This document shows, one piece after another, positions 26,491 through 35,450 of a stretch of 64,000 nt of DNA. The translations under genes and the position numbers were made by a program. Below the pieces are notes generated by a model. The model was not told the DNA's origin. It did no database searches and saw only the letters and a list, made by a program, of their open reading frames with translations. The DNA comes from an uncultured Thermoplasmatales archaeon (lineage in GTDB: Archaea > Thermoplasmatota > E2 > DHVEG-1). Position 1 is the stretch's first letter; the number at the start of each line of letters is the position of its first letter. The stretch lies in NCBI GenBank assembly GCA_964618505.1, contig CAZUBH010000008.1, positions 15,257 through 79,256 of the forward strand. Reading direction: 5' to 3'.

Positions 26491-26667
26491 CTATTCTATT
26501 CTTCTAACAGTAATTGGAATCGCACCTTCTTCAAATTCTAACATTGAAATTTTAACAGGATCTATTACATCCTTTGGAATTTTTGAAAGTGTAGTTGGTG
26601 CACCCATAGAAAGCTGTAAAGCTCTAGCACCTATTATCCTTGCTTTTTCAAATCTAGTATATTCCAA
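26491..26667 (-). CDS. rpoK: DNA-directed RNA polymerase subunit K (Rpo6); not present in the supplied ORF track.
   Basis: Manual minus-strand translation gives (TTG)EYTRFEKARIIGARALQLSMGAPTTLSKIPKDVIDPVKISMLEFEEGAIPITVRRIE. The TTG start is preceded by GGGAGG. Confidence 0.8.
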   Translation of the reverse strand: MEYTRFEKARIIGARALQLSMGAPTTLSKIPKDVIDPVKISMLEFEEGAIPITVRRIE

Positions 26668-26776
26668 TATATTCCTCCCGTTTTATAATAGACGGTAAGA
26701 CCTCCAAATGCCAGAAACATTTAAAAATATTACTCATAGTCTTACCTGTTAACTTTTTTCAATAAAAAAGAAAAAA

Positions 26777-26986
26777 TTATTTAATTTCCTCTATACCTTC
26801 TCCAAAGTCTGCTGTGCGATTTGAAAATTCATCAAGTGCTAGCTGCATATCAAATATTATATCCCTTAATAATCTATCAATTCTATCGTTATTAAATTCT
26901 TTTACTCCATCAATATCTGAATATATTTTCCCCATATAATTGCCGGTTCCTTTATGTATTTCAATATTATACAAGATTTCCTCCAT
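26777..26986 (-). CDS. Hypothetical 69-aa acidic protein.
   Basis: Clean ORF between L30 and rpoK. It has no cysteines, so it is not RpoN. No family recognised. Confidence 0.3.
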   Translation of the reverse strand: MEEILYNIEIHKGTGNYMGKIYSDIDGVKEFNNDRIDRLLRDIIFDMQLALDEFSNRTADFGEGIEEIK

Positions 26987-27055
26987 ACTAATACCCTCTC
27001 ATAGTTGTTTTACATACCTTAAAATGACACTCTATATAAAATTTTTGTATTATTA

Positions 27056-27520
27056 TTAAATCATTCTTTTTATAAGACTATTTATTTCTTTTCCTCTATA
27101 ACCAAGTGCTCCGCCATTCTTAAAAGATCTTTTTATGCCCTCGTAGCCTTTTTTTGGCGGATTTAGTCTAAATATTGGTTTGACATCTGGTATTTCTTTA
27201 TATTTAATCTTATTTTCAATAATTGCTTTGGATAATTTATCAAATTTGTCAAAAGATGTTGATGTTTTAAGGTATTCTTCAGATAAATCTTTATCTCCTG
27301 TAAGCAAACCTCTGTTATCAATGAGTTTTGACAATGTTTCTTTATCTATTTCTCCCCAAGTTGCATAGTCCTTTACAATTTGTAACATTCCTTTATAAAT
27401 ATCATTTTCTTCTAATAATACACAATGATTGGCCTTATTTAACCTAAGTAGATGAAGAGTTTTTTTGATATCTGGTTTAACATTTACAGATCCTCTGATT
27501 CTTATTGCTGCATAAACCAT
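27056..27520 (-). CDS. rpl30: 50S ribosomal protein L30 (uL30).
   Basis: MVYAAIRIRGSVNVKPDIKKTLHLLRLNKANHCV matches archaeal L30. The start is chosen at the internal Met, which avoids overlap with S5. Confidence 0.8.
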   Translation of the reverse strand: MVYAAIRIRGSVNVKPDIKKTLHLLRLNKANHCVLLEENDIYKGMLQIVKDYATWGEIDKETLSKLIDNRGLLTGDKDLSEEYLKTSTSFDKFDKLSKAIIENKIKYKEIPDVKPIFRLNPPKKGYEGIKRSFKNGGALGYRGKEINSLIKRMI

Positions 27521-29216: not shown

Positions 29217-29960
29217 TTACACCTTAATATTTAAAACTCTAATTTCCAGTTCTTTTGCTTTTTTTGCTATTTGTAAACGCTTTTTTGTTCCTACCGTGCC
29301 GCCAATTCTTGCTGCTTGCTTCTTTGGGTCAATTTTTTCGAGATCTGAAAGATTATGTACCATAATTTCTTCAAAACCAGAGGAATGCAAACCACGAACC
29401 TCTTTAGGCCCTCTGAAGCCAATTCTTACTTTGCTTGGCCTATATTTGAAGTTCCTCCTCATTTTTGAAGTAATACCGTCCGGTCTTCTCCAATTCTTTG
29501 GAACTCTTTTGTATCTAAACCATTCTTCCCTTAGAAATTCTGGAGTTCTTTTCTTTATTTTCTTTCTTGTTTCTAGTTTTTCCTTAATTTCTTCTGTTAA
29601 AGATGGTTTTATTTTAATTTTTACTTTATCTTCTTCTTTTTCATCAACAATTATTACTTCTTCCTTTGTTTTTTTCTCTTCGACTTTACTTTTTTCTTCT
29701 TTTTTTGTAACAGTTTTTGGTTTTTGTTGAGTTTTTGCTTCAGTGCCTTTCAACTTCGATTTTTCTTTTTCCGTTTTTAGTTGATTTATCATATCTTTTG
29801 CATTTTTTTCCGATATTCCACCGATCTTTGTTAAATCTGAAATTTTTGCATTTTTTAATTTATTAATTGAGTCAAATCCATTTTCATAGAGTAGTTTTGC
29901 TTTTGCTTCGCCAACTCCTTTTATTGAAGTAAAATCTTTAATAACATCTTTTTTAGACAT
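29217..29960 (-). CDS. rpl32e: 50S ribosomal protein L32e with an N-terminal HhH2 domain and a Lys/Glu-rich linker (fusion).
   Basis: The C-terminal about 130 aa form a canonical L32e (FLREEWFRYKRVPKNWRRPDGITSKMRRNF...). The N-terminal about 110 aa hold two helix-hairpin-helix motifs (IKGVGEAKAKLL, KIGGISEKNAKDM) and a KEEKSK low-complexity linker. Confidence 0.8.
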   Translation of the reverse strand: MSKKDVIKDFTSIKGVGEAKAKLLYENGFDSINKLKNAKISDLTKIGGISEKNAKDMINQLKTEKEKSKLKGTEAKTQQKPKTVTKKEEKSKVEEKKTKEEVIIVDEKEEDKVKIKIKPSLTEEIKEKLETRKKIKKRTPEFLREEWFRYKRVPKNWRRPDGITSKMRRNFKYRPSKVRIGFRGPKEVRGLHSSGFEEIMVHNLSDLEKIDPKKQAARIGGTVGTKKRLQIAKKAKELEIRVLNIKV

Positions 29961-29961
29961 T

Positions 29962-30504
29962 TTAACTCCTCTTTGAAATTACGTAGACGCCATCTTGAAA
30001 AACACGGATGTCTCTACGAGTTACTTTTCCAGCTCTTTCAATATTTGCTGCGGTTTGCCCCACTTTTTCAATGTCGACCCCAGATACAGTTACCTCATCC
30101 CCTTTTGTTTCAACTTTTACACCTTCCAATATTTTAGCTTTTCTGGGAGATCTCTCACCTAGGAAATTTTGGATGGTAAAAGCATCTCCTTCTACATTTG
30201 TTTTTATTGGAAAATGAGAAAACACTGTTTTCATTTTATATTCAAATCCTTCTGTCACTCCCTTAATCATGTTATTTATGTGTGCCTTGAAAGTCCCAAT
30301 AAGTGCTTTTTCTTTTCTTTTTGGGGATTTAATACACGAAATTTCGAATTTATTTCCATTCAACTTTAAATCAATTTTTGGGTGAGAAAGAGTTTTGGAA
30401 ATCGACCCTTTTTCCCCTTTTACTGTAATTGTCTTATTTTCAATTGATAGTTCAACTCCTTGAGGAATTTCGATTTCTTCTTTTAATTCTGTAATCTTTG
30501 TCAT
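29962..30504 (-). CDS. rpl6: 50S ribosomal protein L6 (uL6).
   Basis: Two-domain uL6 pattern (PQGVELSIENKTITVKGEKG...). Confidence 0.85.
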   Translation of the reverse strand: MTKITELKEEIEIPQGVELSIENKTITVKGEKGSISKTLSHPKIDLKLNGNKFEISCIKSPKRKEKALIGTFKAHINNMIKGVTEGFEYKMKTVFSHFPIKTNVEGDAFTIQNFLGERSPRKAKILEGVKVETKGDEVTVSGVDIEKVGQTAANIERAGKVTRRDIRVFQDGVYVISKRS

Positions 30505-31616: not shown

Positions 31617-32329
31617 TTCATTTTCACCTCGGGAAGATTTATCACAGGTTTATTTTTCCCAATGGGGAAGATATAATCTACAATTGTAGAAAATTCGGTA
31701 TTGCCTTTCAACTTAGCAAGATTTGGTTTTGAAGAAGGCACAATCTGAATGTCTTCAATATTTGCGATTTCTCCTACGTGACTTCCTCCAGTTATCAACG
31801 AAACAGTTCCTTTTTCAAATTTAAAAGACTCATTAATCTTACCATCTTTAAAATTTATTTTTATGACATCACCAGATTTATACTCGTCTTTATCAACCAG
31901 TTTATTATTTCCATCGTGTAAGTTCAATTGTATCTTTTTACCTTTAACAATAGTTTTGTTTTCTATTCTGCATAGTTTCCACTCGGCATCTTTGCCCGAT
32001 ATAGAGACTAAGCTTAGTTTTCCTTTTTGATCATAGGCAATTCTATAATCTTTTTTTAACTTTGGAATGGAAATTACATCCATTAAACCGCAAGGAAATT
32101 TGTGATTTTTTCGTTTTTTCCCGTCTACTAAAATGTCTCCATTTCCAATTATGTTTTTTGCTTCTCTGTAAGTGTCACACAAACCAAGATAATCCCTTAC
32201 AACTAATCCTAAAGCAACGGATTTGTCTAATGGGTGTGGGCCTGGAGATTGTTTTATAGTCCATTTCTTTTCTTTTCTATGAATTTTTACAACTCTAGGG
32301 GCGGCAAGTCTTTTTAGATGTTTACTCAT
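31613..32329 (-). CDS. rps4e: 30S ribosomal protein S4e.
   Basis: MSKHLKRLAAPRVVKIHRKEKKWTIKQSPGPH is the typical eS4 N-terminus. Confidence 0.85.
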   Translation of the reverse strand: MSKHLKRLAAPRVVKIHRKEKKWTIKQSPGPHPLDKSVALGLVVRDYLGLCDTYREAKNIIGNGDILVDGKKRKNHKFPCGLMDVISIPKLKKDYRIAYDQKGKLSLVSISGKDAEWKLCRIENKTIVKGKKIQLNLHDGNNKLVDKDEYKSGDVIKINFKDGKINESFKFEKGTVSLITGGSHVGEIANIEDIQIVPSSKPNLAKLKGNTEFSTIVDYIFPIGKNKPVINLPEVKMK

Positions 32330-33012
32330 TTCTTACCCTCCTCTTTTTTTTGTTTTGTTTTAACAGTTTTTGTTGTTTTTTTCTCAGATATTTTGCCTTT
32401 GGGCGTTTCTTTTTTCTTAGTCGTATCTTTTATTTCTTCTTTCTTCTTTTTTGGTTCAGTCTTTGGTTTCTGTTCTGGTTTCTTAGTTTCATCTTTTCCT
32501 TCTTTTTCCTCTGATTTTTCTCTTGATGGTTCCTCTTGAATTTGCTCTTCTTCTTTTTCAAGTTTAGCAAGTTCTTCTGCTTTTTTCTTCTCTTCTTCTT
32601 TTATCTCTTTGAGTTGTTCTTGAGCCTCTTTTTCAATCTCTTTTTTAGTTGTTTCAGATAAACCTTTTTCTAAACCGCCTCTGCGCCATTTGTCTGTTAA
32701 ATTTAATTTTGTGATTAATAAATTACTTGCATGCATGGGTTTTGCGATTTTGGTCCCATCAGCTTTGATTGTTGTAATTCCTTCAACAACAACTGTTTGT
32801 TTTTTAACGTTAACACTAGAAACTTTGTCCTCATGCCCTTTAAAACTACCACGCATTACTTTTACAGTATCGCCTTTAACAACAGGTATGCTTCTTTTAT
32901 CATATTTTAATAACAAATTTTCTGATAAATGTGAAGCTAACCATTTTCTTTTTTTATGGATGGGGGCATTGTAAATCATTTTTCTTGACTTTCTTGGCTG
33001 TATAGATTTCAT
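32326..33012 (-). CDS. rpl24: 50S ribosomal protein L24 (uL24) with an about-110-aa Lys/Glu-rich C-terminal extension.
   Basis: KOW-containing uL24 core (VVKGDTVKVMRGSFKG). It is followed by a long KEEKK-type low-complexity tail. Confidence 0.8.
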   Translation of the reverse strand: MKSIQPRKSRKMIYNAPIHKKRKWLASHLSENLLLKYDKRSIPVVKGDTVKVMRGSFKGHEDKVSSVNVKKQTVVVEGITTIKADGTKIAKPMHASNLLITKLNLTDKWRRGGLEKGLSETTKKEIEKEAQEQLKEIKEEEKKKAEELAKLEKEEEQIQEEPSREKSEEKEGKDETKKPEQKPKTEPKKKKEEIKDTTKKKETPKGKISEKKTTKTVKTKQKKEEGKK

Positions 33013-34081: not shown

Positions 34082-34381
34082 TTAAATTATCTCAACCATG
34101 AATCCCATTTTTTCAAGTGCTTCTTTTACCTTATTTCTGTGATCTCCTTGAAGTTCTATTTTACCTTCTTTTATTGTGCCTCCACAGGCACATATTGATT
34201 TGAGGTTGCTTACAAGAGCACTTACATCCATACCGTGTGGATCCAACCCTTCCACGATAGTCATAACTTTGCCGTACCTTCGTCTGTCAACGGCAATAGT
34301 TATGTTTTGCTGTTCTCTTGCTATTTCTTCACAAGCACATATCTCCTTAGGAAGACCACATTTTGGGCAAATCTCGCTCAT
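34082..34381 (-). CDS. sui1: Translation initiation factor aSUI1 (eIF1 homolog) with an N-terminal zinc finger.
   Basis: MSEICPKCGLPKEICACEE...KSICACGGTIKEGKIELQGDHR is the typical archaeal SUI1. Confidence 0.8.
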   Translation of the reverse strand: MSEICPKCGLPKEICACEEIAREQQNITIAVDRRRYGKVMTIVEGLDPHGMDVSALVSNLKSICACGGTIKEGKIELQGDHRNKVKEALEKMGFMVEII

Positions 34382-34584
34382 TTATTTTCTCCTTCCTCCT
34401 GCATGACAGTGAGTATTTTTGCTATAGTCATTCGAATCTGCCTAATTTTTCCTGGTGACGGAGGAGATCCTCCCATAGCTGACACTCCTCTTTCATGCAT
34501 AAGTTCTTCTTTCAGCCCTTTGAGCTTTTCAGCCCTTTCTTCTGGACTAAAATCTCTGATTTGTTTAGCTTTTAGAACCATCAT
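34378..34584 (-). CDS. rpl29: 50S ribosomal protein L29 (uL29).
   Basis: LKAKQIRDFSPEERAEKLKGLKEELMHERG matches uL29. Confidence 0.8.
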   Translation of the reverse strand: MMVLKAKQIRDFSPEERAEKLKGLKEELMHERGVSAMGGSPPSPGKIRQIRMTIAKILTVMQEEGENK

Positions 34585-35450
34585 TTAGCCTCTTCAATTA
34601 ATTTCTTTAGATTTTTAACAATTATTTCGGCAGTTTTTTTGCCAATACCCTCTATAGACATTATACTATCAATATCCATCTCATATAGTTCTTCTAATGA
34701 TTCTACTTTTGCTTTTTCAAGTTTTTTTACAACTGAAGGCCCAACACCTTGAATTTCTGCTACTTTTTTGATATCAGTCTTTTTAGCTTCTTTTTGTTTA
34801 GTTTCTTCTTTTTCAACTTTCTCTTGTTTTTTATCTGTCTTTTTTTCTTTCTCAGGTATTCTTATGTTTATTTCGTCCGGTAATACAGATTCCGGCTTCA
34901 TTATTCTGACTTTAACTCCAAGCACCCCTGCTTTTAGCTTTGCAGTTGCATAACCAATATCCATTACTTCTTTTGCAACTTCGCCGCAGTATTTAACATG
35001 CCCTTCTGTGAATTTCTCTGTTCTGTGTCTTGCACCTGTTAATTTGCCTGCAATAACAATTTGACATCCTTTCGCACCAGAATTCATAATTCTTCTTACT
35101 GTTGAGTGCCCTGCTCTTCTAAAATGCCATCCTCTTTCCAATGCCTCTGCAAGCTTTTCCGCCATAATTTGAGCATTTGTAGATGCACTAGCTCCTGCCT
35201 CTTGGATTTCAATCTGTGGGTTATCTACATCAAACTTATCCTGAATGTTTTGAGTAAGTTCTTTTATTTTTACTCCGCCTTTTCCAATAACCATGCCTGG
35301 TCTTTCTACTAAAATGTTAACTCTTGTTCCAATAGGTGTTCTCTGGATATTCATGCCGCCAAAGCCAGCTCCTTCTATTTCTTTTATTAAAAACTTTCTT
35401 ATTAATGATCGATTTGCGTTCTCTCTGACAAATTTTCTCTCGCTTGCCAT
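34581..35450 (-). CDS. rps3: 30S ribosomal protein S3 (uS3) with a Lys-rich linker and a C-terminal HhH2 domain (fusion).
   Basis: The KH-domain uS3 core (GMVIGKGGVKIKEL...) is followed by KEKKTDKKQEK... and two HhH motifs (EIQGVGPSVVKKL, SIEGIGKKTAEII). Confidence 0.85.
   Translation of the reverse strand: MASERKFVRENANRSLIRKFLIKEIEGAGFGGMNIQRTPIGTRVNILVERPGMVIGKGGVKIKELTQNIQDKFDVDNPQIEIQEAGASASTNAQIMAEKLAEALERGWHFRRAGHSTVRRIMNSGAKGCQIVIAGKLTGARHRTEKFTEGHVKYCGEVAKEVMDIGYATAKLKAGVLGVKVRIMKPESVLPDEINIRIPEKEKKTDKKQEKVEKEETKQKEAKKTDIKKVAEIQGVGPSVVKKLEKAKVESLEELYEMDIDSIMSIEGIGKKTAEIIVKNLKKLIEEAK

Follow-up and report, generated by a model that had tools for sequence, protein, structure and literature searches.

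The NCBIfam database describes the ribosomal protein eL32 (L32e) with two models: NF006332, of 132 positions, for the short form, and NF009401 (PRK12766), of 238 positions, for the long form. The short form is that of Pyrococcus, Thermococcus, Sulfolobus, yeast and human, its archaeal chains having 123–161 amino acids (aa) and no N-terminal domain. In the long form, which is that of the Halobacteria, the eL32 core is preceded first by a helix-hairpin-helix (HhH) domain recognised by the Pfam model HHH_5 (PF14520) and then by a linker of low complexity. The whole stretch of 64,000 nucleotides (nt) analysed here, hereafter the window (contig CAZUBH010000008.1 of the assembly GCA_964618505.1, positions 15,257 to 79,256), comes from an uncultured Thermoplasmatales archaeon and contains, in one ribosomal protein operon, the gene rpl32e coding for an eL32 with the same order of parts and the gene rps3, whose product uS3 carries a domain of the same type at its C-terminus. 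With a probability of about 55%, the domain of eL32, referred to below as (HhH)2, would be a flexibly tethered, non-sequence-specific nucleic-acid-binding arm.

The rpl32e gene (29217..29960, minus strand) codes for 247 aa followed by a stop codon, with the (HhH)2 domain, the linker and the core in a single frame. The N-terminal (HhH)2 domain, residues 1–65 (29766..29960, minus strand), has the hairpins GVG (residues 15–17) and GIS (residues 48–50), and its residues 8–62 match HHH_5 with E = 9.7e-16, scoring 58.4 bits where the gathering cut-off is 27. Its predicted fold comprises two motifs with Gly-hydrophobic-Gly hairpins and a connecting helix, five helices altogether. The sequence-only reading of this DNA, which had spanned 29780..29960, i.e. 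residues 1–60, named two HhH motifs and a KEEKSK linker; all three are present in the translation, IKGVGEAKAKLL at residues 13–24, KIGGISEKNAKDM at residues 45–57 and KEEKSK at residues 87–92, and the profile support for the motifs is far beyond chance. The same reading took most archaeal L32e to be about 130–140 aa long, which agrees with the chain lengths of the short form in solved ribosomes.

The second part, residues 66–118 (29607..29765, minus strand), is a K/E-rich mixed-charge linker with 19 K+R and 14 D+E counted over residues 63–118. The predicted local distance difference test score (pLDDT) is below 50 for residues 66–113, and the linker of about 50 residues is predicted to be disordered. 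Its length and sequence differ freely among relatives, while the hairpin glycines and several residues flanking them are invariant, and comparison of the relatives shows the (HhH)2 domain to be under purifying selection. The third part is the canonical eL32 core, residues 119–247 (29220..29606, minus strand), supported by Pfam, NCBIfam and Protein Data Bank (PDB) matches: residues 139–244 match Ribosomal_L32e (PF01655) with E = 7.6e-39 and 132.8 bits against a cut-off of 25, the score against NF006332 is above the curated cut-off (160.9 bits against 120), and eL32 chains of solved ribosomes, including that of Pyrococcus furiosus, are matched with E of about 1e-37. The core is clearly orthologous to the short-form eL32, and judging by its orthology to the chains of solved ribosomes the window protein would belong in the large ribosomal subunit.

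The L32e of Haloarcula marismortui (240–241 aa; 1jj2, 1s72, 3cma) aligns with the window eL32 over nearly the whole length, residues 7–244 of the latter corresponding to residues 13–230 of the chain, and the 234-aa long-form eL32 of the PDB series 9l94 aligns with it as well. The N-terminal part alone matches the same chains across the HhH region, where the window eL32 and that of H. marismortui (1JJ2/1S72/4V9F) are 41% identical. HHH_5 was found in residues 15–65 of the H. marismortui protein (E = 5e-15); the sequence used for it is 98% identical to a RefSeq Haloarcula L32e and consistent with the PDB alignment. The same model matches all the 120 best haloarchaeal L32e hits, which come from Haloarcula, Halorientalis, Natronomonas, Halorhabdus, Salinarchaeum and Halococcus and are all annotated as 50S ribosomal protein L32e. 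Residues 4–244 of the window protein cover positions 6–227 of the 238 in NF009401 with E = 1.5e-45, although the equivalog cut-off of this model is not reached (155.7 bits against 239). Since the Haloarcula protein and NF009401 both align end to end, the architecture can be considered already known, and the window eL32 appears, by sequence comparison, to be a divergent long-form member from another phylum, with the haloarchaeal architecture but outside the NF009401 equivalog as calibrated.

The two differ in the linker, which is acidic in Haloarcula and of mixed K/E charge in the window, and in the number of HHH_5 copies, of which many Halobacteria have two and the window protein one. Many haloarchaeal L32e proteins are 310–380 aa long, and all three that were scanned (P0257 from Halorhabdus utahensis, P0250 from Halorientalis marina, and P0259) contain two tandem HHH_5 domains before the core. 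In the H. marismortui 50S structures (1jj2, 1s72, 4v9f) 142–144 of the 240 residues of L32e are modelled, and structural alignments to this chain span the eL32 core only; we therefore infer that the unmodelled part corresponds to the N-terminal (HhH)2 domain and the linker.

As for the origin of the modules of eL32 and uS3, the N-terminal domains of RadA score as well as, or slightly above, the haloarchaeal L32e (41% identity to Haloarcula) against the (HhH)2 domain of the window, and haloarchaeal L32e, RadA, LigA and Topo V are not separable by sequence score as the nearest relatives of the modules. The lineages between Halobacteria and Thermoplasmatota have no (HhH)2 domain on eL32. These two phyla may share a single inherited eL32 fusion or may have gained it independently. 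Domains of this type are found in proteins of DNA repair, recombination and transcription, such as the C-terminus of Hef/XPF, the N-terminus of RadA/Rad51, AR1/AR2 of NusA, UvrC, LigA and domain II of RuvA; unlike these canonical (HhH)2 proteins, the host in the window is a ribosomal protein with no catalytic partner domain attached.

An artefact, meaning two genes joined through a sequencing error or a wrong start assigned where a short eL32 is really made, is hardly credible here. The frame is unbroken from its ATG, which lies 1 nt past the uL6 stop codon (29962..29964) and is preceded at 6 nt by a GAGGAG Shine-Dalgarno sequence (29966..29971, minus strand) located within the 3′ end of rpl6. 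The only in-frame starts in codons 2–166 are ATG57, which falls within the (HhH)2 domain, and TTG70; no Shine-Dalgarno sequence was found before either of them, so that a short eL32 made from an internal start is unlikely and no usable internal start precedes codon 167. The exact window eL32 is present on seven assembled contigs, its listed sources being NCBI and Logan, and the (HhH)2-eL32 architecture is found in all 120 best homologues of the window protein, in cultured Halobacteria and, among the loci surveyed below, in two closed chromosomes, with the domain clearly under purifying selection. The artefact explanation is thus refuted as far as sequence data allow, nothing having been found in its favour, and the single fused product of 247 aa proposed by the sequence-only reading stands. 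Close homologues that bear a name all belong to metagenome-assembled genomes with the label Thermoplasmatota or Thermoplasmatales. The G+C content of the window is 31.6%, and rpl32e is a genuine gene of an AT-rich, uncultured member of the archaeal phylum Thermoplasmatota.

The second fusion is located on uS3, which lines the mRNA entrance of the small subunit. The rps3 gene (34581..35450, minus strand) codes for 289 aa consisting of a KH_2 and Ribosomal_S3_C core (both recognised by Pfam), a linker and a C-terminal (HhH)2 domain, and its identity is supported by the NCBIfam models NF003219 and TIGR01008 (289.6 bits against a cut-off of 147) and by its neighbours, uL22 upstream and uL29 downstream. 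The K/E-rich linker, residues 199–226 (34773..34856, minus strand), has 11 K+R and 9 D+E, a pLDDT of about 30 and a variable length among relatives. The (HhH)2 domain, residues 227–289 (34584..34772, minus strand), has the hairpins GVG (residues 235–237) and GIG (residues 268–270), in which G235, G237, G268 and G270 do not vary among 16 relatives, and its residues 229–283 match HHH_5 with E = 4.7e-12 and 46.6 bits against 27, in line with the earlier suggestion that the same module type is appended to uS3. In the predicted structure residues 227–288 form five helices with a pLDDT of about 70–75; the model is poor overall (mean pLDDT 52.9), for which the identity of about 80% among the 16 aligned sequences is the probable reason, and nothing beyond the helical pattern of the C-terminal module can be used from it. 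The modules of eL32 and uS3 share 33% identity, and a profile built from both matched only these two proteins among the 493 stop-to-stop open reading frames (ORFs) of the window.

The uS3 fusion is less documented than that of eL32. Though common in metagenomes, the (HhH)2 tail had no match among the uS3 chains of the PDB and lies outside every NCBIfam uS3 model, the one matched here covering residues 1–225. Extensions past the KH_2 and S3_C core are otherwise frequent in uS3, in eukaryotes as well as in Haloarcula, whose 304-aa protein ends in about 100 acidic residues without HhH, and in Methanosarcina acetivorans, whose 318-aa protein gave no match to the (HhH)2 tail as a query. In two more distant Thermoplasmatota-type loci (L059 and L060) the uS3 frames extend over 338–468 codons from stop to stop and have long A/E/K-rich or acidic tails without HhH. 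The C-terminus of uS3 appears to be a general expansion site.

A survey of the domains of L32e and S3, which the sequence-only reading had suggested, was carried out on 66 species-representative loci from GTDB genomes, with the eL32 N-terminus classified in each. Sixty-five of the genomes are titled as Thermoplasmatota-type archaea and one (L067) as a Rickettsiales bacterium; they include SG8-52-3, Guaymas and cold-seep bins, which we take to be of the sediment 'MBG-D / E2' type of Thermoplasmatota. The (HhH)2-eL32 architecture was found in 46 of the 66 loci. Ten more (L043, L044, L046, L047, L049–L052, L054 and L056) have instead a histone-H1-like, K/T/E-rich extension of about 105–150 residues, measured from the protein start to the FLREEW motif of the core, in which no domain is recognisable; Pfam, run on two of the ten, found none. 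Of the five loci of Poseidoniales, which form one clade, four (L063, L064, L066 and L067) visibly have an SAP domain and an acidic linker, and the fifth is masked by a run of N; the SAP domain stands where the window eL32 has (HhH)2 and was confirmed by Pfam in L063, the sole one scanned (E = 4.2e-12). The extension is short or absent in three loci, and eL32 is cut by contig ends in two. The SAP-bearing and lysine-rich forms have an appendage of about 100–150 residues before the core, as does the window protein, and differ from it in what the appendage consists of. In one locus (L041) the eL32 frame lacks the first half of (HhH)2 and opens inside the second hairpin, as a frameshift, an error of assembly or pseudogenisation of the arm might explain.

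On an approximate tree of the eL32 core built by neighbour joining, which has no support values and was used only to see how the lysine-rich forms are scattered, these forms occur at no fewer than four places among the (HhH)2 forms, and one of them (L054) starts with MVKDDVVKDSTSVKG, resembling the start of an (HhH)2 domain. This scatter and the remnant in L054 suggest that the (HhH)2 domain of eL32 has repeatedly decayed or been replaced. The tail of uS3 is distributed in another way: it is present in 43 of the 47 loci with uS3 visible, including six genomes whose eL32 has a lysine-rich tail, and absent from the four most distant ones, two of which are Poseidoniales. In two SAP-eL32 loci of Poseidoniales the visible uS3 is a stop-to-stop ORF of 234 aa with no tail domain. 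Because the domains sit at opposite termini, N-terminal on eL32 and C-terminal on uS3, and have different phyletic distributions, they are best read as two separate fusions, in agreement with the earlier claim of independence. The accompanying claim of lineage specificity holds for uS3 as far as the survey reaches; it does not hold for eL32, the (HhH)2 form of which is standard in Halobacteria, has its own NCBIfam model and is not confined to one lineage.

The proposed arm of eL32 would be a flexibly leashed domain, folded and kept by selection, and not a docked element, since the corresponding part is unmodelled in H. marismortui, the glycines are invariant while the linker varies, and disorder is predicted for the latter. 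It is only from the conserved hairpin residues that nucleic-acid binding by the two modules is inferred. Each arm would grip the sugar-phosphate backbone through its two conserved Gly-hydrophobic-Gly hairpins irrespective of sequence, and such binding is favoured because both hairpins are kept and the same site takes an SAP domain or a lysine-rich tail; the effect would be a higher local concentration of a polyanionic partner. On uS3 the C-terminal domain would make an analogous arm in the lineage of the window, kept near the incoming mRNA by the 28-residue linker, with structured mRNA on its way in, or the DNA template during coupled transcription-translation, as candidate partners.

With regard to the position of the eL32 arm, yeast eL32 binds domain II of the 25S rRNA, in a region depicted from the solvent-exposed side, bridges to domain I (PMC4671574), and is required for the earliest steps of large-subunit maturation (PMC4671574; assembly table in PMC9932298). 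By homology the core of the window protein would sit at the solvent side of the large subunit, and since the yeast protein binds a region shown from that side, the mobile arm may be expected to project on its leash from the back of the subunit, where nascent rRNA in early assembly is a candidate partner. Several points weigh against an arm of this kind. The best structural matches of the module include AR1/AR2 of NusA and ERCC1-XPF, and (HhH)2 domains can also mediate protein-protein contacts; the net charge is modest, +5 for the module of eL32 and 0 for that of uS3; the linker of the haloarchaeal version is strongly acidic; and absence from the crystal model is compatible with partial or conditional docking.

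A permanently docked domain is what the sequence-only reading had proposed, namely one making rRNA contacts on the ribosome surface that replace lost proteins or rRNA segments. The (HhH)2 domain is well conserved, and both Halobacteria and Thermoplasmatota have fewer of the archaeal/eukaryotic ribosomal proteins, which would suit such compensation. However, about 95 N-terminal residues fall outside the modelled ones in every H. marismortui 50S structure listed, disorder is predicted for the linker, whose length is not constant, ten related genomes have a lysine-rich low-complexity tail in place of the domain and Poseidoniales have SAP, and M. acetivorans has an eL32 of 161 aa with no N-terminal domain and a uS3 not matched by the tail query. 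Replaceable as it is by low-complexity sequence or SAP, the domain suits a generic binder on a tether better than a plug of defined shape; a role as a structural substitute is quite improbable, and this part of the earlier interpretation is not supported.

The presence of the same module type on both subunits of one ribosome could also mean that the modules hold proteins together, either by recruiting a partner, as NusA AR2 does with the C-terminal domain of the RNA polymerase alpha subunit, or by pairing in the manner of ERCC1-XPF and thereby linking subunits or ribosomes, e.g. in hibernating dimers or polysomes. Yet the modules occur independently: Haloarcula combines the eL32 module with an acidic uS3 tail free of HhH, and the six surveyed genomes mentioned above combine uS3-(HhH)2 with a lysine-rich eL32 tail. 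As each is found without the other, obligate pairing of the two is excluded. Both Gly-x-Gly hairpins are kept and invariant, and the swaps to lysine-rich tails and SAP point to a polyanion as the target, which leaves a protein adaptor a rather unlikely option.

If the target were chromosomal DNA, the arms would tether ribosomes to the nucleoid or to the transcribing polymerase for coupled transcription-translation, or would give the free proteins an extraribosomal function of the DNA-repair type. The best sequence matches of both modules, which are RadA, LigA, UvrC, Hel308-type helicases, RuvA and Topo V, agree with this, as do the place of uS3 at the mRNA entrance and the replacement of the eL32 arm in Poseidoniales by SAP, classically a DNA-binding motif. 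All this evidence nevertheless fits DNA and double-stranded RNA alike, and the position of eL32 at the rear of the large subunit is remote from the path of the mRNA (PMC4671574). A role directed specifically at DNA is accordingly held to be doubtful, and it is a special case of the nucleic-acid-binding arm, not a separate mechanism.

It is also possible, and proposed here tentatively, that the N-terminus of eL32, together with the C-terminus of uS3 in one clade, is a hot spot for interchangeable leashed nucleic-acid-binding modules that were installed repeatedly in two archaeal phyla. The modules found at the putative eL32 site are one or two (HhH)2 domains, SAP and the histone-H1-like lysine-rich tail; with them, a single position on the ribosome surface has four or more kinds of nucleic-acid-binding appendage among related archaea, and uS3 bears (HhH)2 in one clade. 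The hot-spot idea, if true, would point to an unrecognised selectable function of a ribosome-borne arm catching polyanions, for instance ribosomes being held on the complex of DNA and nascent transcript for coupled transcription-translation, or nascent rRNA being chaperoned during assembly.

Sequence databases and crystal structures have included the eL32-(HhH)2 fusion of salt-loving archaea from 2000 on. This fusion is known to sequence, family and structure databases and apparently undiscussed in the searchable open literature: no discussion of HhH on eL32 or uS3, or of SAP on eL32, was found in searchable open full texts or in the reviews consulted, and none of the idea of interchangeable arms in the searchable literature. 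Taken alone, the eL32 fusion adds little, as it extends a haloarchaeal architecture known from databases to a sizeable group of Thermoplasmatota, uncultured and of marine and sediment origin. Of more interest are the uS3 fusion and the exchange of modules at the N-terminus of eL32, for which any suggested function is hypothetical. For 25 years the ribosome of H. marismortui has served as a reference structure, and the role of the arm is directly testable in Haloferax volcanii, which is genetically tractable; its surveyed relatives among Halobacteria carry the eL32 arm.

The ribosomal protein genes of the window form the cluster usual in archaea, with the order uL3-uL4-(uL23)-uL2-uS19-uL22-uS3-uL29-SUI1-Rpp29-uS17-uL14-uL24-eS4-uL5-uS14-uS8-uL6-eL32-eL19-uL18-uS5-uL30, where uL23 between uL4 and uL2 was assumed from position. 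The gene for eL32 lies between those for uL6 and eL19, and the order uS8-uL6-eL32-eL19-uL18-uS5-uL30 is the same in the Haloarcula locus. A third ribosomal protein of the operon with a long charged appendage is uL24 (228 aa; 32326..33012, minus strand), which consists of a Ribosomal_L26/KOW core reaching to about residue 116 and a tail of about 110 residues, rich in K and E and of low complexity, in which Pfam found no domain; uL24 of Haloarcula has 120 aa. Between uL29 and the p29 subunit of RNase P there is a gene for the initiation factor SUI1/aIF1 (34082..34381, minus strand; Pfam E = 7.7e-24), which is absent at the corresponding position of the Haloarcula locus. The Haloarcula locus goes on to uL15 and SecY, whereas the cluster in the window stops after uL30. 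Beyond it, in the region 26491..27056 (minus strand), there is an ORF of 69 aa (26777..26986) with no Pfam match, followed by the gene for RpoK/Rpb6 (58 aa; 26491..26667, minus strand; E = 5.1e-10), and the next gene codes for uS2, assigned by eye from the translation.
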